Source of the DNA: a virus
Lineage: Duplodnaviria > Heunggongvirae > Uroviricota > Caudoviricetes
Reading direction: 5' to 3' (one strand)
IMG/VR virus record: IMGVR_UViG_3300006141_000002
DNA: 64,000 nt
Position 1 is the stretch's first letter; each line of letters begins with the position of its first letter. Below the pieces are notes generated by a model. It was given only the letters and a program-made list of their open reading frames with translations. It searched no databases and had not been told where the DNA came from. The position numbers and the translations under genes were made by a program. Positions 32,563 through 54,221 of the stretch are shown in pieces.

Positions 32563-32648
32563 CTATGAGAGTGTAGCTCAGTGGCAGAGCGGGGCAGATA
32601 CATGCCTGTCAACCGGATATGCGCTGCGTGGGTTCGATTCCCACCACT
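32563..32648 (+). tRNA. tRNA-like gene, anticodon unresolved (possibly CAU)
   Basis: acceptor GAGAGUG/CACUCUC, D arm AGCUCAGUGGCAGAGC, T arm GUGGGUUCGAUUCCCAC; the anticodon region did not fold cleanly by eye. Confidence 0.4.
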
Positions 32649-32657
32649 CTCTAATAT

Positions 32658-40102: not shown

Positions 40103-40774
40103 ATGGATTTGGCGAAGTCCTACGAATTCTTCAAGCCGGATATGCTCGAATCGCGGATTCATATCATCGGCTGTGGAGCGATTGGTTCCACGGTCGCTGA
40201 GAATCTGGTGCGGTTCGGCATTACGAAAATCACGCTGTATGACTTCGATACCGTAGAAGCCCACAACATTGCCAACCAGATGTTCCGGAATACGGATATC
40301 GGCAAGGCCAAGGTTGATGCTTTGGCTGAGTATCTCACCGAGATCAATCCGGACTGCGCCCCCGATCTGAAGCTGGTCAAAGAGGGCTGGACAGGCCAGC
40401 GTCTCTCCGGTTATGTGTTCCTGGCGGTGGACAACATTGACCTCCGCCGGGAGATCGCCACCTCCTGTAAGGAGAACACGTTCGTCAAGGGGATGTTCGA
40501 CTTCCGGATGCGGCTGACGGACGCCCAGCACTATGCCGCTGACTGGAGCGACAAGAAGATGGTGGAGAACTTTATCGACAGCATGGCGTTCTCTCATGAT
40601 GAGGCAAAAGAGGCGACGCCCGTTTCTGCCTGCAATATCACACTGTCGGTTGTTCCGACGGTGCGAACGATCGTTGCCTACGGCGTAGCCAACTTCATCA
40701 ACTTCGTGAAGGGCGAGAAACTCCGCAAGATGATTCTTGTGGATGCTTTTGAATTCGACGTGATCGCCGTGTAA
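40103..40774 (+). CDS. E1-like ThiF/MoeB-family adenylyltransferase
   Basis: IHIIGCGAIGSTVAENLVRFGITKITLYDFDTVEAHNIANQMF matches the Rossmann GxGxxG + DxDxVExSNLxRQ-like ThiF signature. Confidence 0.7.
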   Translation: MDLAKSYEFFKPDMLESRIHIIGCGAIGSTVAENLVRFGITKITLYDFDTVEAHNIANQMFRNTDIGKAKVDALAEYLTEINPDCAPDLKLVKEGWTGQRLSGYVFLAVDNIDLRREIATSCKENTFVKGMFDFRMRLTDAQHYAADWSDKKMVENFIDSMAFSHDEAKEATPVSACNITLSVVPTVRTIVAYGVANFINFVKGEKLRKMILVDAFEFDVIAV

Positions 40775-41218: not shown

Positions 41219-42358
41219 ATGCCATACATAACCGTCATGCAATCGCCTGCATACCATCAGATATCATTTGAGGAAATCATATCTGGTGAGGTCAACATGC
41301 AGTCTATGATAACTTCAAACAGCACCAATACCAGAACGCATTTCGCACAGCGACTCAAGCCACAGTTTCTGGATCGGTTCGATTTCGCCGGTATGGTCTC
41401 CGCTCTGGAGAGTTTTTGCGAACAAAATGCCGAGCTGTATGCCGTTCCGAGAGAAGCCCTCTATACCACATTCCATATTCCGAAGAAGTCCGGCGGCCTG
41501 CGTGAGATCAATGCCCCTGTGCCAGAACTGATGACGGCGCTTCGGAATCTGAAGACTTTGTTTGAGACCAAGATGTTTGCGCTGTACCACACCTCCGCCT
41601 TTGCCTATGTTAAGAATCGTTCCACCATTGACGCCATCAAACGTCACCAGAGGAATGACAGTCATTGGTTCTTAAAGACGGATTTCTCGAACTTTTTTGG
41701 GGACACAACGCTGGTATTCCTTCGGTATTCGCTCTCTTTGATTTTCCCGTTCAGCGAGATTGTCAAGTCAGAACGGGGCAGAGCAGCACTGGACAAGGCA
41801 CTCAACCTCTGTTTTCTTCATGGCGGATTGCCGCAGGGCACGCCGATTTCTCCGATGCTCACAAATCTGATGATGATCCCCCTTGATCACAAGGTATACA
41901 ATACCCTGCGTGATTTTAACGGGCAGTCGTTCGTTTACACCAGATACGCAGACGACTCTCTAATTTCAAGCCGGAGAGAGTTTGACTACAATAAGGTCAT
42001 CGACTTCATCAATCAGACGCTGGATGATTTCCATGCGCCGTTCAAGATCAAGGATGAGAAGACGAGGTATGGTTCCAGAGCCGGCAGTAATTGGAACCTC
42101 GGGCTCATGCTCAATAAGGACAATGAGATCACCATCGGTCACAAGAACAAGCAGCGTTTTCGTGCAATGATCAGCAACTACATCCTCGACCGTAAGAACG
42201 GAATTGTCTGGGAACTGCACGATGTTCAGGTTTTGCGCGGCCTTATCAACTACTACCGGATGGTTGAAGAAAAGTATGTTGACGAGGTCATCAAGTACAA
42301 CAACGAAAAATATCAAACGGACGTAATGCGTACCATCCATGAGGATTTGGCCGCATAA
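41219..42358 (+). CDS. retron-type reverse transcriptase
   Basis: IPKKSGGLREI, NRSTIDAIKRH, FLKTDFSNFFG, LPQGTPISPMLTNL, YTRYADD; C-terminal region alignable to the retron INxKKT...VTG...IG region with NLG for VTG. Confidence 0.7.
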   Translation: MPYITVMQSPAYHQISFEEIISGEVNMQSMITSNSTNTRTHFAQRLKPQFLDRFDFAGMVSALESFCEQNAELYAVPREALYTTFHIPKKSGGLREINAPVPELMTALRNLKTLFETKMFALYHTSAFAYVKNRSTIDAIKRHQRNDSHWFLKTDFSNFFGDTTLVFLRYSLSLIFPFSEIVKSERGRAALDKALNLCFLHGGLPQGTPISPMLTNLMMIPLDHKVYNTLRDFNGQSFVYTRYADDSLISSRREFDYNKVIDFINQTLDDFHAPFKIKDEKTRYGSRAGSNWNLGLMLNKDNEITIGHKNKQRFRAMISNYILDRKNGIVWELHDVQVLRGLINYYRMVEEKYVDEVIKYNNEKYQTDVMRTIHEDLAA

Positions 42359-45324: not shown

Positions 45325-45429
45325 CCCCGAAAGGGGAACGTGCAAACATGGTATTTAATAAGACAGCGCACCCATGCGGTCTATAACAATGTGGGGAACG
45401 GCCCGGCTATACGCCGGGCCTCTTTTACG

Positions 45430-45847
45430 GGGCCGTAAAGGTTTCGACGGGGTTCTGAGAGAGTAAGATTCGCAGGTAGAGACCGCCTTAAGGCTAAACA
45501 AAAAATGAAATGACAATGATATGAGTGTTGTTATGATCCATCCCGCTTTCGCCGCCTTCATGGCAGAGAGGGTCGCCGCTTAACTGTCGGCAGGATTCCA
45601 AAACGGTACACCTCTGGCTGGGTAAGTACCTGCGGTCGAGGATACGCCAGAAAAACAGTTTTCCTTGTAATCTGTTCAAAAAGACAAGGTGGTGGAGGTG
45701 TACTTAACTGGTACGCCCTGGGGTAGATTTGGATTCCATCTTGGTGCCCCGCCATAAGGCATCCACCTAAAAGGAAACCTATTGCGTAAAAAGGTCTTGC
45801 TCATGTAGGAATTTCGGACGCGGGTTCGATTCCCGCCGGCTCCACCA
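45430..45847 (+). ncRNA. ssrA: tmRNA (SsrA)
   Basis: 5' GGGGCCGUAAAGGUUUCGACGGGG and 3' GGACGCGGGUUCGAUUCCCGCCGGCUCCACCA match the tmRNA tRNA-like domain consensus; candidate tag ORF ending ..AFMAERVAA-stop near 45540-45590. Confidence 0.7.
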
Positions 45848-45926: not shown

Positions 45927-45927
45927 G

Positions 45928-45960
45928 CGTGCCGTAGTTCTCGGCACGATCTTTTTCTTT
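45928..45960 (+). terminator. rho-independent terminator
   Basis: GUGCCG-UAGUUCUC-GGCAC then UUUUUCUUU. Confidence 0.5.
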
Positions 45961-46083
45961 GCTCCAAAGTACACGGAGCACCCCGCCGCCCTGCGGGATG
46001 GGCACGCTCAAAACCGAGTGTAGCAGGTTTACAGGGACGCTCGCCTGCGGGAGTCCTGTTTTTAGAGCTACACAATACAAAAT

Positions 46084-46250
46084 GTGCGGTGGCGGAATAG
46101 GTAGACGCTATAACGAGAGGTAGGGTAAGACAATGGTTCGAGTCCATCGTTGTCCTCCTGTTTGGGTTCGGTGAAGTAGCCGATGGGCGACAAGCTCGGT
46201 AGCAGGTACATAATCTTACCTATGCGGGGTGAAAATCCCCGCCCGCACAA
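46084..46250 (+). other. about 167-nt tRNA-Leu-like element with expanded middle (no encoded CCA)
   Basis: 5' UGUGCGG-UG-GCGGAAUAGGUAGACGC (tRNA-Leu D arm) ... 3' GCGGGGUGAAAAUCCCCGC-CCGCACA pairing the 5' end. Confidence 0.3.
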
Positions 46251-46253
46251 TAT

Positions 46254-47552: not shown

Positions 47553-47750
47553 AAACGCAAGGGTAACCGTTCACACGCTCAAAGAAGTTCCTCCGAATGA
47601 TCAAAGATCCGTACGGATCGCGGGCGATCCTCCCGGATCTTGGATCATCGGCGTCACTTCTTCAAGGCTGCAAAAAGAAAATTCCGACAGTTCTGTAATG
47701 TATATCGCCTGTTATAACCAATCAATACATAAAGCGGGCACTCCGTATTG

Positions 47751-47770
47751 TTAATCGGAGTATGGATTTG
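47751..47770 (+). repeat. hairpin repeat copy 5 with compensatory stem change (CTCCG..CGGAG)
   Basis: GGGCACTCCGTATTGTTAATCGGAG. Confidence 0.55.
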
Positions 47771-47933
47771 TTTGTTTCCTCGCTGCGCGAGCGCGACGAG
47801 GTCGGCTGACGCCGACGAAGTCGCGCCGCTCGCGAGTCCTTTGGCATCATTCAGATGTCCAGTCACATCTCACCTGGACATCTGTAATGACGGATTACAG
47901 AACGAACAACATATCAGTTTAAGGAGAAAACCA

Positions 47934-48452
47934 ATGCGGCAAGTACGAAATTCGGTGTTTGAGACCAATTCCAGCAGCACCCACTGTATTTGTATTGTGA
48001 CGGACAGGAAGGCTGAACTAGAATATCCAGAAAAGGTGTATTTTCGATGTGACGATTTTGGCCGAGAGCCTGCTGAACTGCGGTCAGTCGAGGATAAGGC
48101 TGCGTATTTATACTCCAGTATCCTGTCGCTTTATGAAATGAAAAAGGCAGAGAACGCAAAGACATGGATTATGGAAGAACTGATGAAAGTTGGTGTTCAA
48201 TGTGAGTTTGAAAAGGCCACCTATCACAGATATGGAAGCGGCGTTTATTGCGTTAATGCTTTTGTCGATCATGCTGGTGAGGACGATCATCTGAGGTTCG
48301 TGGACGGAATACTTCGGAGCAGCGGGCGGCTGCTCCGTTATTTATTCTCCGATAAAAGCGTTGTTTTAACAACAAGTGATGAAATTGACGATGATCGCGT
48401 GGAAAATTTCCATGTCGATTACCGGCACGAATTTTACTACAAGGGGAACTAA
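47934..48452 (+). CDS. hypothetical protein with N-terminal MRQVRxxVFETNSSSTH motif
   Basis: RBS TAAGGAGAAAA; paralogous N-terminus with 52986 gene. Confidence 0.45.
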   Translation: MRQVRNSVFETNSSSTHCICIVTDRKAELEYPEKVYFRCDDFGREPAELRSVEDKAAYLYSSILSLYEMKKAENAKTWIMEELMKVGVQCEFEKATYHRYGSGVYCVNAFVDHAGEDDHLRFVDGILRSSGRLLRYLFSDKSVVLTTSDEIDDDRVENFHVDYRHEFYYKGN

Positions 48453-48462
48453 GGAGGTACAT

Positions 48463-49011
48463 ATGAGTAAGGTATTGGTCATTGTTGATATGCAAAACGA
48501 TTTCATTGATGGGTCTCTTGGCACCAAAGAGGCGCAGGCGATTCTGCCGAAGGTTGTTGCGAAAGCCGAAGAGTTTGACGGCGAGATCCTTGCAACCTTT
48601 GATACCCACGATAAGGACTATCTGGAGACGCAGGAAGGGAAGATGCTCCCCGTTGAGCACTGCATTGATAAGACCGAGGGCTGGTGCGCCCCTGATGTGC
48701 TTTTCAATGCAATCGTAGACAAGGAGGAGTGGACTTCTACTTTCAGAAAGAAAACGTTTGGCTCTATTGAACTTGGCGAGTACCTGCGCATTAAAAACAG
48801 CGTGTCGAGCCATATTGACGAGATTGTCCTGGTCGGCCTCTGCACCGATATCTGTGTCATTTCCAACGCGCTGCTGCTTAAAGCGTTTTTGCCGGAAGTC
48901 AAAATTACGGTGGATGCCGCTTGCTGCGCTGGCGTGACACCAGAGAGCCACGAAAATGCCCTCAAGGCCATGAAGATGTGTCAAATCAACATTGAGAACT
49001 GGGAGGAGTAA
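48463..49011 (+). CDS. pncA: nicotinamidase/isochorismatase-family cysteine hydrolase (PncA-like)
   Basis: VDMQNDF Asp, LVGLCTDICV Cys of the D-K-C triad; RBS AAGGAGG. Confidence 0.6.
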   Translation: MSKVLVIVDMQNDFIDGSLGTKEAQAILPKVVAKAEEFDGEILATFDTHDKDYLETQEGKMLPVEHCIDKTEGWCAPDVLFNAIVDKEEWTSTFRKKTFGSIELGEYLRIKNSVSSHIDEIVLVGLCTDICVISNALLLKAFLPEVKITVDAACCAGVTPESHENALKAMKMCQINIENWEE

Positions 49012-49014
49012 GAC

Positions 49015-49815
49015 ATGATTCTGGTGAACAGAACCCCTGTTAACTTTACGCAGTTCCCAGACGGGACCACATCCTTCCGCCTTGATACCAAAGACGCTGT
49101 CTGGTTCCGTATTGAGTGGCGGTATGATGGCGACCACGAGTGTATGCTCCTGTGGCATTTGGTGCATCACATTCGGGCGAACAATCGGATGGGTGTGGAT
49201 ATTGAGCTCGTTTTGCCGTACATTCCCAATGCTCGTATGGACAGGGTCAAGAGCGGCGACGAGGTGTTCACCCTGAAATGGTTCGCCGAGTTCATTAACA
49301 CTCTCAACTTTCGTAAGGTTGAAGTGCTTGATCCACATTCCAATGTGGCGGCAGCGCTTATCGACCGCATCTGCGTGAAGGAGCCTGCGGACAATATCCG
49401 TCTGGCTATTGAGCGTGTCATGGCTGATACAGGCGATACTGATGTTCTGATGTGCTACCCGGACGAGGGCGCTGCCAAGCGGTACTCCGACCTGATGGGC
49501 CGGGAGTATGTGTTCGGTATCAAGCACCGTGACTGGCGCACTGGCAAAATTGAAGGGCTTGAACTCGCCAACAGTGAGAAGGTCGCCGGTCGAAATGTTC
49601 TTATTGTGGACGACATTTGCTCCCGTGGCGGTACGTTTACCCATACTGCTGCTGCCCTGAAAGAAGCTGGTGCAAAGGAAATTTTTCTGTATGTGTCCCA
49701 TTGTGAGAGCACCATCTTCAAGGGCTCCGTGTTGACAGATGGCCAGATTTCACGAGTATTTACAACAAACAGCATCTATCGTGGTGAACATGAGAAAGTG
49801 GCTGTATTAGAGTAG
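49015..49815 (+). CDS. PRPP-synthetase-like phosphoribosyl pyrophosphokinase (Prs/Adps-like)
   Basis: VLPYIPNARMDR (Prs catalytic flexible loop), VLIVDDICSRGGTF PRTase type I motif. Confidence 0.6.
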   Translation: MILVNRTPVNFTQFPDGTTSFRLDTKDAVWFRIEWRYDGDHECMLLWHLVHHIRANNRMGVDIELVLPYIPNARMDRVKSGDEVFTLKWFAEFINTLNFRKVEVLDPHSNVAAALIDRICVKEPADNIRLAIERVMADTGDTDVLMCYPDEGAAKRYSDLMGREYVFGIKHRDWRTGKIEGLELANSEKVAGRNVLIVDDICSRGGTFTHTAAALKEAGAKEIFLYVSHCESTIFKGSVLTDGQISRVFTTNSIYRGEHEKVAVLE

Positions 49816-49831
49816 TCATAGGAGGTGCGCG

Positions 49832-49999
49832 ATGAGATGGCTTATCAACTATATCCGCTCGCTGTTTTGCAAACATGAGTGGGAACATATCACGAGAGTA
49901 ACCAACTATTCTGAGTGGGCTCCACAGGATATGCCTATTGGATACACAGAAATATACCGTTGCAAAAAGTGTGGTTATGTCCAGAAAATTCACTATTGA
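49832..49999 (+). CDS. 55-aa zinc-ribbon protein
   Basis: CKHEW...CKKCG; RBS GGAGGTG. Confidence 0.3.
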   Translation: MRWLINYIRSLFCKHEWEHITRVTNYSEWAPQDMPIGYTEIYRCKKCGYVQKIHY

Positions 50000-50008
50000 G
50001 GTGACAAT

Positions 50009-50233
50009 ATGCTGTTTCTAATCGTTTTAATTGTTATCACTTACATTCTGATTGGTTCTTCTCTTGGCGGTTTTTACTACTACCTGATGTATAAAAAGAA
50101 CAGCTATAGCGACCTGGAAGATATGCACTATCTACCAATATGGATCATGGCTTTGTGGTTTATCGTGGCTCCTCTTGCATTTGCAATCTACTATGCGGGA
50201 AAGAAAGTTGAAAGTGAGGATGATGAGAAATGA
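50009..50233 (+). CDS. small two-TM membrane protein
   Basis: hydrophobic helices; RBS GAGGTGA. Confidence 0.4.
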   Translation: MLFLIVLIVITYILIGSSLGGFYYYLMYKKNSYSDLEDMHYLPIWIMALWFIVAPLAFAIYYAGKKVESEDDEK

Positions 50234-51756
50234 GTGGTTGTTGCTACAATCCACTGCTTTGCCTGGACTTTTACAAGACGGCCCACGCAGAGCAGTATCC
50301 GCAGACCCTGACCAAGATGGTCTCCTACTACACTCCCCGCATGACCCGGCTGGGAGACACAGATAAGGTCACGATGTTTGGCCTCCAGGCGTTCATCAAG
50401 GAGTACCTCGTTGATGCCTTCAACCACTTTTTCTTCCAAGAGGACTGGGAGGATGTCCTCAGCGAGTATAAGCGGGTTCTCAACGCCACCATCAACACCG
50501 ATGGTGTTGGAGAAAAGCGCCTGAAAGCTCTTCATGACTTGGGCTATCTTCCCCTAGAGATTCGGGCCGTGCCGGAGGGTGTGCGTACCAATATCAAGGT
50601 GCCGCAAATTGAGATTTCCAACACCCATCCGAACTTTGTGTGGCTGGTGAACTCCATTGAGACCATGCTGTCCTGCACCATGTGGCACACCCAAGTTTCC
50701 GCCGAGGTCGGCTATCGCTACCGCCAAATCGTCAACGAGTTTACAGATCGCACCTGTGATGACAGCGTGGTCCGCGCCAGACTCCTTGGCGATTTTTCCA
50801 TGCGTGGTCAAGAGAGCGTGGAGAGCGCCACCAAAAGTTCTGCCGCTTTCTGTCTCAGCTTCCTGAACACCGCCACTGTTCCCGCAATCCTGTGGCTGGA
50901 GGACAACTATCACTGCGACTGTGCTAAGGAGCCGGTAGCCTATGGCGCTTTGTCCACCGAACACAGCGTGATGTGTTCCAACTTCGCTATGGACGGTGAC
51001 GAGGTCACCCATATCCGCCGTCTGCTGACCGAGATTTACCCTCACCAGAACTTCTCCATGGTCAGTGACAGCTACGATTACTGGAATCTGGTAGACAACA
51101 TCCTGCCGCAGCTCAAAGACGAGATTCTGGCACACGATGGATGTCTGCTTATCCGTGGAGACAGTGGAGACCCCGTCGAGGTCGTGACCAAGACTGCGTT
51201 CAAGCTGTGGGACATTTTTGGAGGCACCGTGAACAGCAAGGGGTTCAAAGTGCTGAATCCGCACGTCAAGGCGTTGTATGGTGACAGCATTACTCCCCAG
51301 CGATGCAAGCAAATCTATCAGATTCTGGAATCCAACGGGTTTGCCATTAACAATGTCTCCCTTGGCGTCGGTTCCTTCTCCATGCAGTGCTTGGAGACTT
51401 TGGAACGAAGTGAACCCAATCCCGTTTCCGGTATCTCTGTTGTCAATAAGACATACGCACCATACACCCGTGACACCTTTGGTATCGCCGTTAAGGCCAC
51501 CTATGCCGAGGATGCAGACGGCAAGCCCATCATGATTTTCAAGAATCCCAAGACCGACACTGGTCACTTCAAGAAGTCTCAGCGGGGTTGCTGCCGTGTG
51601 ATCAAAAACGGTGATAACTACATCTATAAGGATGGCCTAACTTGGGCTGAGGCTCAAGAGAACAATGAATTACGGGTGGTCTTCAAGAATGGGGAGTTCA
51701 TCAAAATTTATACCTTGGATGAGGTTCGGCAGAATCTCCATGGAGGGGAATTTTGA
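50230..51756 (+). CDS. nadV: nicotinamide phosphoribosyltransferase (NAMPT/NadV/Namat-like)
   Basis: 508 aa; CYNPLLCLDFYKTAHAEQYP N-terminus typical of NAMPT; start overlaps upstream stop. Confidence 0.65.
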   Translation: MSGCCYNPLLCLDFYKTAHAEQYPQTLTKMVSYYTPRMTRLGDTDKVTMFGLQAFIKEYLVDAFNHFFFQEDWEDVLSEYKRVLNATINTDGVGEKRLKALHDLGYLPLEIRAVPEGVRTNIKVPQIEISNTHPNFVWLVNSIETMLSCTMWHTQVSAEVGYRYRQIVNEFTDRTCDDSVVRARLLGDFSMRGQESVESATKSSAAFCLSFLNTATVPAILWLEDNYHCDCAKEPVAYGALSTEHSVMCSNFAMDGDEVTHIRRLLTEIYPHQNFSMVSDSYDYWNLVDNILPQLKDEILAHDGCLLIRGDSGDPVEVVTKTAFKLWDIFGGTVNSKGFKVLNPHVKALYGDSITPQRCKQIYQILESNGFAINNVSLGVGSFSMQCLETLERSEPNPVSGISVVNKTYAPYTRDTFGIAVKATYAEDADGKPIMIFKNPKTDTGHFKKSQRGCCRVIKNGDNYIYKDGLTWAEAQENNELRVVFKNGEFIKIYTLDEVRQNLHGGEF

Positions 51757-52195
51757 TGTCTATCAAAATAATTGATGGAGACCTGTTCTCTACAAAATCA
51801 AATTATATTTGCCACCAAGTGAACTGCCAAGGGAAAATGGGAAGCGGCGTCGCAAAGCAGATAAGGACAAAATTCCCCACAGTTTACAAATGGTATAAGG
51901 TCAGGTGCGATGAGGGCGCACACCTGTTGATGGCAAGAATATTGATCCCCAGGTTGTTTGCAATCTGTTTTCTCAAGACCAGTACGGTTATAACGGAAGG
52001 CAGTACACAGACTATGCAGCTTTTGAAAAGTGTCTACTCCAATTAAAACAGATCGTTCCTGCTGGCGAGACGATTGCAATGCCATACAAGATTGGATGTG
52101 GTCTTGGTGGAGGCAACTGGGGTGTTGTGTTCGGAATCATTGAGAAGATTCTTGGCCAGCAATACACGGTAGAACTATGGAGAAAAGAGGGGTAA
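51753..52195 (+). pseudogene. TARG1/OARD1-like macro domain gene interrupted by a -1 frameshift near 51915
   Basis: N-terminal GDLFS..ICHQVNCQGKMGSGVAKQIRTKF in frame 0 (to 52046); C-terminal MPYKIGCGLGGGNWGVVFGIIEKI in frame -1 (51914-52195). Confidence 0.5.
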
Positions 52196-52198
52196 TTT

Positions 52199-52963
52199 AT
52201 GCTTCCAAACCCAAAACACACAAAAGACGCAATCGTTCAGTGGATTCGTGATTATTTTCAGGAAAACGGCCCGGAGTGCAGTGCGGTTGTCGGAATTTCT
52301 GGCGGGAAAGACAGCTCGATTGTCGCCGCCCTGTGCGTTGAGGCGCTCGGCAAAGACCGCGTATTTGGTGTTTTGATGCCAAATGGTGTCCAGCACGACA
52401 TCAAGGACAGCCGAAAGGTAGTGGAGACGCTTGGCATTGAGCACTGCACTATCAATATCGGAGGAGCGATTGAGCGTCTGACTTTGGAAATTCGCGGTTA
52501 TATGCCTGTAACGGAGCAGTCGAAGGTAAATCTGCCAGCTCGCATCCGCATGGCAACACTGTATGCGGTTGCGCAGTCGCTTCCGAACGGCGGACGGGTA
52601 GCCAACACATGTAATGGCTCAGAGGATTATGTGGGATATTCCACAAAGTTTGGGGACAGTGCGGGAGATTTCAGTCCTCTTGCCAGTCTCCTGGTGAGTG
52701 AAGTCCTGCAAATCGGGTACGAATTGCCCATTCCGCGTGAACTGGTGGACAAAACGCCGTCTGACGGCCTGTGTGGCAAAAGTGACGAGGACAATCTCGG
52801 TTTTACCTATGCGCAGCTCGACAAGTACATCATGGTCGGTACAACAGGAGATCCTTCGCTTGACAGTAAAATCAAGACCATGAACGAGCGTAACCTGCAC
52901 AAGCTCCTGCCGATGCCATTCTTTCAGAATGTGACATCGCGGCCTATAAAATGTGAGTTTTAA
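52199..52963 (+). CDS. nadE: NH3-dependent NAD+ synthetase
   Basis: PP-loop VVGISGGKDSS; 254 aa. Confidence 0.7.
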   Translation: MLPNPKHTKDAIVQWIRDYFQENGPECSAVVGISGGKDSSIVAALCVEALGKDRVFGVLMPNGVQHDIKDSRKVVETLGIEHCTINIGGAIERLTLEIRGYMPVTEQSKVNLPARIRMATLYAVAQSLPNGGRVANTCNGSEDYVGYSTKFGDSAGDFSPLASLLVSEVLQIGYELPIPRELVDKTPSDGLCGKSDEDNLGFTYAQLDKYIMVGTTGDPSLDSKIKTMNERNLHKLLPMPFFQNVTSRPIKCEF

Positions 52964-52985
52964 TCGCAATCAAAAAGGAGAGCGT

Positions 52986-53282
52986 ATGAGACAAGTAAGA
53001 TGTGGAGTGTTTGAAACAAACAGCAGCTCCACGCATAGCATCGTTATCTGCACGCAGGAAGAATACGAGAAATTCAAGCAGGATGAACTGATGTATGACT
53101 GCTTCGATGGCAAACTCGTTCCGTATTCAAAGCTGCTCCTCGAATCTGAGGAATACCGATATCAGGATCATCGACACTTGGGTTACAGTGACTGGGGTTC
53201 TATGGAATCATACTCCCACTACTTCACTACGCCGAGTGGAGACAAGATGGTCGCGTTTGGTGAGTACGGGAGAGACGGATAA
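52986..53282 (+). CDS. hypothetical protein with MRQVRCGVFETNSSSTH N-terminus (paralog of 47934)
   Basis: RBS AAAGGAGAG. Confidence 0.4.
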   Translation: MRQVRCGVFETNSSSTHSIVICTQEEYEKFKQDELMYDCFDGKLVPYSKLLLESEEYRYQDHRHLGYSDWGSMESYSHYFTTPSGDKMVAFGEYGRDG

Positions 53283-53300: not shown

Positions 53301-54221
53301 GTGAGTATTTTAGGCGAGTACACCAACGGGAATTACCGTGTGAGAATCTATAGCGACGGAACGAAGGTTCGTGAAAACGACCTGGATTTCTTTGAGCCTG
53401 AGTTCCCAGAGTCGTTTGACATCAAGATCACAAACCAGTGTGATATGGGATGCGCTATGTGTCACGAGGACTCAAGACCGGATGGCAGACATGGAGACAT
53501 CCTGCATCTGCCATTCTTGGATTCTATCCGCCCCTATACTGAGCTTGCTATTGGCGGCGGCAATCCGCTCGCCCATCCAGATTTGATTCCATTTCTACAG
53601 CAACTCAAAGAGCGGAAGCTGATTCCCAATATCACGGTTAACAAAACGCATTTCATGAAAAATCTTCCCATGCTCCGATACCTGACGGAGCATGGGTTAA
53701 TTTATGGGCTTGGTATCTCCTATCTGGACTGGACGGAAGACACAGACAGCTTTATTGAGATGGTTAAGTATTACCCCAATGCTGTCATTCACATCATCAA
53801 CGGTATGATTTCGATGAAGGGGTTCAGGTCGCTGGCTGGTCACAACCTGAAGATTCTGATTCTCGGGTATAAAGATTTCCGGCGCGGCGAGGACAACTTG
53901 GAGCGGCACGGCGAAGACATCGCGGCTAAAAAGGTTGCACTCTATAACGCATTGGGTGACGCTGTGAAACATGGCTTCTTCAAAGCAGTCAGCTTTGACA
54001 ATCTTGCTATTCGCCAGCTCGATGTAAGGCGGCTGATGTCGGAGGATCAGTGGAAGGAATTCTACATGGGGGACGACGGTATGGATGGAGAGTTCACGTC
54101 CGCCTCCATGTATATCGACGCTGTCGAGGGGAAATTCGCAAAGAATTCCTGTTGCTCCATCCGGCACGATATTACAAACGATATTACAGAAATGTTCCAA
54201 TATCTGAAGAAACAAGGGTGA
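53301..54221 (+). CDS. radical SAM enzyme (second copy in window)
   Basis: ITNQCDMGCAMCHE (CX3CX2C), ELAIGGGNPL; GTG start with RBS AAGGGAGG. Confidence 0.55.
   Translation: MSILGEYTNGNYRVRIYSDGTKVRENDLDFFEPEFPESFDIKITNQCDMGCAMCHEDSRPDGRHGDILHLPFLDSIRPYTELAIGGGNPLAHPDLIPFLQQLKERKLIPNITVNKTHFMKNLPMLRYLTEHGLIYGLGISYLDWTEDTDSFIEMVKYYPNAVIHIINGMISMKGFRSLAGHNLKILILGYKDFRRGEDNLERHGEDIAAKKVALYNALGDAVKHGFFKAVSFDNLAIRQLDVRRLMSEDQWKEFYMGDDGMDGEFTSASMYIDAVEGKFAKNSCCSIRHDITNDITEMFQYLKKQG

Follow-up and report, generated by a model that had tools for sequence, protein, structure and literature searches.

A phage gene cluster with nicotinamidase, Adps, an altered Namat-like transferase and NadE suggests a possible nicotinate route of NAD+ reconstitution

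The gene cluster at positions 48463-52963 on the + strand of IMG/VR virus record IMGVR_UViG_3300006141_000002 (Caudoviricetes), analysed here in a stretch of 64,000 nt (hereafter the window, to which all positions refer), brings together genes for a PncA-like nicotinamidase, a putative ADP-ribose pyrophosphokinase (Adps), a Namat-like transferase with an altered pyridine pocket, a broken macro-domain protein and an NH3-dependent NAD+ synthetase (NadE). Judging from sequence comparisons, we lean towards reading this cluster as a phage counter-defence that rebuilds NAD+ after the action of NAD+-cleaving immunity, in which case it would be a variant of NAD+ reconstitution pathway 1 (NARP1) operating via nicotinic acid. 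A more specific proposal, for and against which we find the evidence evenly balanced, is that Namat-like proteins carrying Ala215 and Ser242 might be nicotinate:ADP-ribose pyrophosphate (ADPR-PP) transferases which make nicotinic acid adenine dinucleotide (NaAD) in one step. The cluster would then represent a self-contained fourth phage route, which could be called 'deamido-NARP1'.

NAD+ depletion is among the commonest bacterial antiviral strategies, and the field of phage NAD+ reconstitution (NARP1, NARP1-AP, NARP2 and NARP3) is young and derived mostly from phages of E. coli, Bacillus and Vibrio. The counter-defence NARP1 is comprised of Adps and Namat (Osterman et al. 2024, bioRxiv 10.1101/2024.02.11.579819; structures in PMC12774641 and PMC13586617). 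In NARP1-AP these two are joined by the Adpp macro phosphatase, an ADPR-1''-phosphate phosphatase, and the three together counter the aRES defence (bioRxiv 10.64898/2026.01.28.702374), while NARP3 consists of PnuC and NadR (PMC13464706).

Scans with Pfam, PHROG and NCBIfam models located all five gene families of the cluster on the + strand, at coordinates unchanged from those of a first-pass annotation made from the letters of the sequence. The features are the following:

48463..49011, + strand: PncA-like nicotinamidase, 182 aa (PF00857, E=5.5e-21)
49015..49815, + strand: Adps, Prs-like protein and putative ADP-ribose pyrophosphokinase, 266 aa (PF00156, PF14572, PF13793; phrog_619, E=7.7e-72)
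49832..49999, + strand: small Cys-rich open reading frame (ORF), 55 aa (matches limited to PHROGs of unknown function)
50009..50233, + strand: small hydrophobic ORF, 74 aa (no family match in Pfam or PHROG)
50230..51756, + strand: Namat-like transferase with altered pyridine pocket, 508 aa, predicted nicotinate:ADPR-PP transferase (PF04095, PF18127)
50872..50874, + strand: codon of Ala215, at the position of D215 in SpβL1 Namat and D219 in human NAMPT (alignment to 9W5X)
50953..50955, + strand: codon of Ser242, corresponding to Ala242 of the nicotinamide pocket of SpβL1 Namat (alignment to 9W5X)
51388..51450, + strand: 21-residue insertion within the clamp-helix motif, transferase residues 387-407 (alignment to SpβL1 Namat)
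51756..52195, + strand: macro (Adpp-type) gene as a whole (phrog_335 in two frames)
51756..52046, + strand: N-terminal fragment of the macro pseudogene, frame A (phrog_335 positions 53-111, E=1.2e-18; weak Pfam Macro match)
51914..52195, + strand: C-terminal fragment of the macro pseudogene, -1 frame (phrog_335 positions 126-202, E=6.5e-19)
52199..52963, + strand: NH3-dependent NAD+ synthetase NadE, 254 aa (PF02540, E=5.7e-52; TIGR00552)

All five families named in the first-pass annotation are thus present, including the nicotinamidase-family cysteine hydrolase, the PRPP-synthetase-like kinase, the 508-aa NAMPT-family phosphoribosyltransferase and the NH3-dependent synthetase. They had been described as five genes in a row, which does not hold strictly, as the Prs-like gene is separated from the NAMPT-like one by two small ORFs. 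Because junctions between the genes are either gaps of 3-17 nt or overlaps (ATGA at 50230, TGATG at 51756), the arrangement is consistent with a single operon. Rfam gave only tRNAs and a transfer-messenger RNA (tmRNA) in the window, and no riboswitch or other RNA 5' of the operon. Between 46.3 and 54.4 kb, promoter-like matches were found near chance level and terminator-like matches numbered 14 compared to 6.7 expected; none of either kind marks an operon boundary.

The top matches of the transferase among structures in PDB are those of SpβL1 Namat (9W5X/9W5W, E=4e-120; structures from PMC12774641), whereas Nampts match more weakly (bacterial 7YQO, 1.6e-52; human NAMPT, ~1e-41). In a neighbour-joining (NJ) tree the protein is located inside the Namat family, in a clade with a bootstrap of 100/100, and the pair of NARP2-type Nampts, 26-28% identical to it, is split off with the same value. 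Of the placements considered in the first-pass annotation, the Namat side is therefore the one obtained. The operon encodes Adps 415 nt upstream of the transferase. Residues D13, Y15, R40, F189, R192, H245, R309 and D311 are kept with respect to SpβL1 Namat, and the Nampt-like core is complete, with G351 and D352 of the window protein corresponding to reference G360/D361 and R309/D311 to R306/D308.

Differences from SpβL1 Namat are accumulated in the pyridine pocket: D215->A, A242->S, H187->G, H207->F and G213->N. Around residue 215, the window protein has the motif NTATV where SpβL1 Namat has GTDTI. In the crystal structure of SpβL1 Namat, D215 hydrogen-bonds the amide of nicotinamide (PMC12774641), and the equivalent Asp219 of human NAMPT sets nicotinamide specificity (PMC7096376; PMC12143786). 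Human NaPRTase has Ser214 at the position of NAMPT D219, a residue that steers specificity to nicotinate (PMC4442680). Because the specificity residue is shifted in the direction of nicotinate enzymes, use of nicotinate by the window-type transferase is proposed. We also considered the Asp in the motif GDFSMRG as the counterpart of NAMPT D219, which would make the enzyme nicotinamide-specific. This assignment was rejected, since in 9W5X numbering that residue is D188, next to F189.

The second departure from canonical Namats concerns the adenine clamp. The clamp-helix motif GSXΦXΦXΦTRD is interrupted in the window protein, being present as GSFSMQ, the 21-aa insertion and YAPYTRD. The aromatic residue at position 3 is kept (F383), while the second stacking tyrosine (Tyr396, position 7) aligns with Pro411, with Tyr412 adjacent to it. 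Arg40 of the clamp loop is kept in the window protein and in its own subclade, and is replaced by Met in the KTSTI subclade. The insertion is found throughout the main clade in variable length and is missing from phAss-1 and canonical Namats. Even among homologues at least 77% identical, the span of the motif ranges from 24 to 43 residues, a hypervariability in insertion length that is unusual at an active-site entrance. The transferase fails two defining features of Namat, Asp215 and a contiguous clamp motif, and because both are missing we did not file it as a functional Namat.

To follow these features beyond the window, IMG/VR was sampled for the 80 nearest neighbours of the window transferase (45-89% identity; related loci) and for the 80 nearest to the Namat of Bacillus phage Smudge (canonical loci). 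Further sets comprised the 35 closest loci and an additional 11 + 4 loci, including the phAss-1 lineage with 11 relatives; about 125 related contigs were covered overall. Residue 215 is Ala in 44 and Ser in 36 related loci, and residue 242 is Ser in all 80, compared to Asp in 65 and Glu in 15 canonical loci with Ala242 in 80/80. The two classes do not overlap at either position, and all of the additional 15 related loci also carry Ala or Ser at 215. Three more positions differ in a similar manner. Position 187 is His in canonical loci (80/80) and Gly, Ala, Ser or Thr in the window class; position 207 is His (80/80) versus Trp or Phe, with His207 kept in phAss-1-like members; position 213 is Gly (80/80) versus Asn, Lys or Arg, the one Gly among 95 being in locus L094. 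Among the canonical proteins, those with Glu215 form a subclade (GSETI/L) represented by 15 of the 80 controls in the range L133-L212 (for example L142, L146, L150 and L151) and, outside the controls, by L052, the crAss-like phage cr111_1. They are canonical otherwise, accompanied by Adps with or without the macro gene and by neither PncA nor NadE, and can be regarded as a conservative variant.

Gene content follows the same division. Of the 80 related loci, 76 carry PncA, 75 NadE (positioned right after the transferase or the macro gene), 78 Adps and 68 the macro gene. Canonical loci have neither PncA nor NadE (0/80 each); 74 of them contain Adps and 35 a macro gene. The other related sets show NadE in 35/35, 11/11 and 4/4 loci, and PncA in 31/35, 11/11 and 4/4. 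Missing PncA, NadE or Adps genes in the 80 related loci are explained by truncation of the locus, except in L062 and L094, and in all but one of the roughly 125 related contigs PncA and NadE are adjacent if the flanks reach far enough. Across loci with transferases of 45-89% identity, the genes kept are limited to PncA, Adps, the transferase, NadE and, in most cases, the macro gene; those on the flanks are not conserved. The 55-aa ORF is present in just 3/80 and the 74-aa ORF in 1/80 related loci, and they are no conserved part of the module.

The most divergent members are those of the phAss-1 lineage and its 11 relatives. Their transferases are about 32% identical to that of the window, without the clamp insertion but with G187, R213, A215 and S242, and their gene order is PncA, Adps, transferase, optional macro gene and NadE. 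The main clade is monophyletic (100/100), whereas its joint monophyly with phAss-1 was recovered in 15/100 NJ bootstrap replicates; at this value for the position in the tree, an independent, convergent origin of the phAss-1 type is not claimed. In two divergent relatives, L090 and L094, a PurA-like adenylosuccinate synthetase (PF00709) is encoded beside the NAD module and might be the PurZ of a diaminopurine (Z-genome) phage. The L090 module also adjoins an IMPDH/GMP-reductase gene (genes concerned: L090, 11126-12220 and 14074-15135; L094, 3757-4974).

Surveys of other collections gave a comparable picture. About 1540 records in a curated phage database have an Adps homologue, of which 44 also have any NadE and 8 also a PncA of the window type; the overlap is mostly formed by the same human-gut records. 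In a large protein collection, none of the best 120 clusters at 90% identity falls below 77% identity with the window transferase, and 118/120 have the NTAT motif.

In the first-pass annotation, PncA and NadE were to cover the deamidated route, in effect parallel to a normal Namat. In such an arrangement, an ordinary Namat would convert nicotinamide and ADPR-PP to NAD+, and the two additional enzymes would boost the Preiss-Handler pathway of the host through its PncB and NadD. Membership in the Namat clade, retention of R40, F383 and the catalytic core, and the possibility that Ser242 stands in for Asp215 as hydrogen-bond partner of the amide are all compatible with this explanation, and NadE alone is an auxiliary gene in cyanophages and pelagiphages without NARP1, as revealed by the database survey. 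On the other hand, NARP2 Nampts and all canonical Namats (80/80) have the amide-binding Asp or Glu, which is gone from every protein linked with PncA and NadE, four more pocket positions switch along with 215, and no canonical locus carries the two genes. A phage nicotinamidase would also rival a nicotinamide-using Namat for its substrate. We therefore consider parallel routes unlikely, although they deserve some weight. Because the transferase itself is without the Asp that specifies nicotinamide, the deamidated route appears to run through the transferase rather than beside it.

The nature of the sugar donor depends on the Prs-like protein. In blastp comparisons it scored 160 bits with gp68 of Bacillus phage Smudge, 114 with ICP1 Adps, an enzyme characterised both in structure and in biochemistry, and 65.5 with E. 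coli Prs, and its best match among Prs structures in PDB reached 50.5 bits. It stays under every NCBIfam Prs cut-off (TIGR01251, 99.8 vs 113 bits), with Prs equivalogs far under. The protein also lacks the C-terminal a11-a12 module, ending about 30 residues short of the E. coli Prs C-terminus (266 vs 315 aa). Loss of this module has been named as a signature of Adps (PMC13586617). Seven residues of ICP1 Adps (F18, R87, H121, D161, K185, D212 and D213) are all kept, with DDICSRGGTF as the PP loop, but they are mostly common to Prs as well, and thus necessary rather than discriminating. By these sequence comparisons the Prs-like protein belongs with Adps of phages and stands apart from housekeeping Prs, a grouping that would have counted against the first-pass interpretation. 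It is predicted by homology to validated Adps to make ADPR-PP.

This bears on a further explanation, according to which the cluster would be a phage-encoded Preiss-Handler pathway: the Prs-like protein would make phosphoribosyl pyrophosphate (PRPP), the transferase would use it to form nicotinic acid mononucleotide (NaMN), host NadD would convert NaMN to NaAD, and phage NadE would complete the synthesis. The pocket changes fit nicotinate here as well, and the split adenine clamp, together with the absence of Arg40 from one subclade, points the same way. SpβL1 Namat keeps catalysis with nicotinamide and PRPP in vitro (PMC12774641), and the NARP2-type Nampt of KVP40 takes both PRPP and ADPR-PP. 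The Adps-type character of the Prs-like protein speaks against it, as does the Adpp macro gene, which would be of use only in supplying ADP-ribose. Besides, this pathway leaves the NadD step to the host, whereas a route on ADPR-PP is complete with four conserved genes. A PRPP-based pathway is, in our estimate, distinctly unlikely. ADP-ribose, rather than ribose-5-phosphate, is proposed as precursor of the sugar donor because the macro gene accompanies 68/80 related loci.

The two enzymes at the ends of the operon were compared with characterised counterparts. For the PncA-like protein, the best nine matches in PDB, and 11 of 12 overall, are nicotinamidases/pyrazinamidases or PncA-like cysteine hydrolases, including P. 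horikoshii 1ILW (3.4e-11) and the enzymes of S. pneumoniae, yeast (Pnc1) and M. tuberculosis (PncA). In alignment with P. horikoshii PncA, the triad D9/K96/C131 corresponds to D10/K94/C133 and the metal site D47/H49/H66 to D52/H54/H71. The NCBIfam equivalog NF008623 was not reached (31.9 bits, cut-off 174); this shortfall reflects a divergent phage lineage compared with a model built on the E. coli type. NadE is well above the cut-off of TIGR00552 (174.7 vs 63.65 bits), has the P-loop SGGKDS at residues 34-39, and is a single domain of 254 aa without a glutaminase domain.

The macro gene located between the transferase and NadE is not intact. Its N-terminal ~55 residues are read in one frame from 51756; homology stops near 51920, followed by out-of-frame read-through to the TAA at 52044-52046. 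The -1 frame, at 51914-52195, encodes the C-terminal ~90 residues, and the two halves match consecutive positions of phrog_335 ('phosphatase'). Relatives of 40-65% identity have one intact in-frame ORF, and alignment with them reveals a deletion which is not a multiple of three in length and by which the conserved LLGxxQxV segment is lost. The 441 nt concerned are identical in six contigs from JGI and ENA samples, each of which was assembled independently. The lesion is real because of this identity, and a sequencing or assembly error was rejected on the same grounds. Programmed frameshifting was likewise dismissed, as no slippery heptamer is present and the deletion takes out a conserved strand. 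The macro gene is a pseudogene in the window phage.

When joined, the macro sequence matches macro genes beside Adps in Bacillus phage FADO and in Vibrio phages K470 and 184E37.1, and the family also adjoins Adps or Namat in phages of Pseudomonas and Rhizobium. The intact orthologue in locus L002 matches Pfam Macro and the DarG macro model. The initial assignment as a TARG1-like macro domain, able to handle ADP-ribose or ADP-ribosylated targets, is accordingly borne out as regards family, the gene being of the Poa1p/TARG1-like Adpp type whose members are ADPR-1''-phosphate phosphatases, but fails as regards function in this phage, in which the gene is broken. Because it is wholly missing from 8/35 of the closest loci and from 12/80 in the wider set, the macro gene is an optional accessory.

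Combining these assignments, the preferred pathway can be formulated as follows. Host NADases (TIR, SIR2 and similar) would cleave NAD+ to ADP-ribose and nicotinamide. The phage nicotinamidase would, by homology, hydrolyse nicotinamide to nicotinate and NH3, and Adps would use ATP to turn ADP-ribose into ADPR-PP, as expected from validated Adps. The remodelled transferase is then proposed to join nicotinate and ADPR-PP directly to NaAD, which would be a new reaction, and NadE would, again by homology, convert NaAD, ATP and NH3 to NAD+; the NH3 released by PncA could serve as its co-substrate. In most relatives, the Adpp macro phosphatase would additionally turn ADPR-1''-phosphate, the aRES product, into ADP-ribose for Adps. 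The nicotinate-to-NaAD step is proposed because the four conserved genes close the pathway without a gap, so that host PncB and NadD would be unneeded, and use of nicotinate is further suggested because the nicotinamidase of the same operon would starve a nicotinamide-using Namat. No NadD, PncB or Nmnat was detected in Pfam annotations of the window between ~20 and 62 kb or in the ten largest ORFs of 1-20 kb, nor in the divergent loci L090 and L094.

Several considerations weigh against this pathway. Loss of the Asp lifts a barrier to nicotinate without proving that nicotinate is used. Ser242 could in principle take over the hydrogen bond to the amide and keep nicotinamide as the substrate. 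The altered adenine clamp (the insertion, the change of Tyr to Pro, and Met for Arg40 in one subclade) makes a preference for ADPR-PP over PRPP insecure. A detour through nicotinate would cost the phage two extra ATP equivalents; speculatively, the reason for paying them might lie in competition from host nicotinamidase, the irreversibility lent by the ATP-driven NadE step, access to niacin of exogenous origin, or a host measure of unknown kind directed against nicotinamide. Two loci depart from the pattern: L062, in which NadE is missing over 8 kb, and L094, in which Adps is missing. Finally, the correlation between the pocket and the PncA/NadE neighbours rests on two or three deep lineages at most, and because of this the contrast between the 160 loci is inflated by phylogenetic inertia.

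The window is a part of a 141.5-kb metagenomic contig (JGI 3300006131 Ga0080692_1000031), which we assign to a large phage because it carries genes for a large terminase subunit, an integrase and a sigma factor, along with 12 tRNAs and a tmRNA. Close relatives of this gut phage were found in human faecal viromes and in metagenome-assembled genomes (MAGs) binned as Clostridia, Oscillospiraceae and Lachnospiraceae; a scan with a single protein gave only four MAG contigs. The related phage phAss-1 has been predicted to infect Clostridia (PMC10607447). Since phAss-1 uses code 15, stop-codon recoding was considered for the window and rejected, as no sign of it was present there and all three stops end genes of the cluster.

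These predicted hosts enter into one more explanation, in which the operon would be a general auxiliary metabolic module raising NAD+ for replication in niacin-dependent gut Clostridia, with no role in immunity. The MAG contigs and the phAss-1 prediction agree with such hosts, NARP2 lifts NAD+ even in the absence of defence, and NadE is auxiliary in the marine phages mentioned above. Yet the substrates of Adps and Adpp, ADP-ribose and ADPR-1''-phosphate, are products of NADases and no normal intermediates of biosynthesis, and all tested Adps/Namat pairs are counter-defence systems. We regard a purely metabolic role as very improbable.

Seen against known systems, the operon is closest to NARP1. 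It shares with NARP1 the adjacent, phage-borne Adps and Namat-clade transferase, the conserved core with Arg40, and the expected recycling of ADP-ribose to NAD+, so that its initial description as an expanded reconstitution cluster of the Adps/Namat type remains appropriate. It differs in the replacement of Asp215 by Ala in the window protein (Ser in the sister subclade) with four more pocket changes, in the clamp motif split by a variable insertion, in the obligatory nicotinamidase and NadE that canonical NARP1 loci lack, and in the predicted product of the transferase, NaAD instead of NAD+. As in NARP1-AP, a Poa1p/TARG1/DarG-like macro gene homologous to those of FADO and the Vibrio phages stands inside the operon of most relatives. 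Unlike NARP1-AP, the macro gene is a pseudogene in the window and about 15% of relatives have none, and PncA, NadE and an altered transferase are added.

With the bacterial Preiss-Handler pathway (PncA, PncB, NadD, NadE), the proposed route would have in common the first and last step and NaAD as the penultimate compound. The PncB and NadD steps (nicotinate + PRPP to NaMN; NaMN + ATP to NaAD) are apparently replaced by Adps and the transferase acting on ADP-ribose. NARP2 (NadV/Nampt and Nmnat of KVP40) and NARP3 likewise restore phage NAD+ against NAD+-depleting defence, and NARP2 employs a homologous NAMPT-family enzyme. However, the window transferase belongs to a different clade (100/100), Adps is present while NARP2 phages lack it, and no Nmnat was found in the annotated parts of the window, so that the operon is not of the NadV plus NMNAT type mentioned at the outset; nor is it NARP3, as neither of its components, PnuC and NadR, was found. 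Searches through full texts on NARP and one supplement set turned up neither NadE nor nicotinamidase in this context, and neither nicotinate nor intermediates in deamidated form. Adps and Namat, with or without the macro phosphatase, have already been published; the altered transferase and its linkage with PncA and NadE are new with respect to the literature searched.

Genes bordering the operon, at 47748-48452 (+) and 52953-53282 (+), share the N-terminal motif VFETNSSSTHC/S and both belong to phrog_28997, of unknown function. At 53301-54221 (+), directly 3' of the operon, a 306-aa protein shows a weak radical-SAM match (PF04055, E=1.5e-4, under the cut-off). Neither the FETNSSSTH paralogues nor the radical-SAM gene were accepted as additional components, as they are not kept beside the module in relatives.

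Elsewhere in the window, the tmRNA at 45429-45847 (+) is positioned inside the tRNA array and is full length, with all positions of Rfam model RF00023 matched (96.1 bits). Its tag peptide as given by ARAGORN is AVEDTPEKQFSL, followed by the stop, with an ending that is unusual for tmRNA. The twelve tRNA genes extend over 14786-46407, and the one at 32567-32652 has a four-base anticodon, 'acat' (ARAGORN tRNA-???; Rfam tRNA, 46 bits). The 330 nt at 45927-46253, between tRNA-Gly and tRNA-Pro, contain no called gene. A reverse-transcriptase gene (RVT_1, 379 aa; 41219-42358, +) follows just 3' of a ThiF-like gene (40103-40774, +), and could be part of a diversity-generating retroelement, a retron-like element or a group II intron. 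Precomputed Pfam annotation of the identical contig also indicates, at ~58.5-62.2 kb (+), a peptidyl-tRNA hydrolase (PTH2), an ABC permease with ATPase, and PspA/IM30.

The operon points to a further branch of phage NAD+ reconstitution, recognisable by sequence and dominant in uncultured human-gut phages. As a rule for annotation, positions 187, 207, 213, 215 and 242, taken together with PncA and NadE as neighbours, would divide proteins now annotated as 'Namat' into two functional classes. The decayed Adpp gene shows that single modules of the arms race are gained and lost within the operon family. If the proposed pathway is true, the one-step joining of nicotinate and ADPR-PP to NaAD would be a new enzymatic reaction, and the operon would be a fourth phage route of NAD+ reconstitution, abundant among phages of human-gut Clostridia, raising the evolutionary question of why some phages send NAD+ repair via nicotinate.

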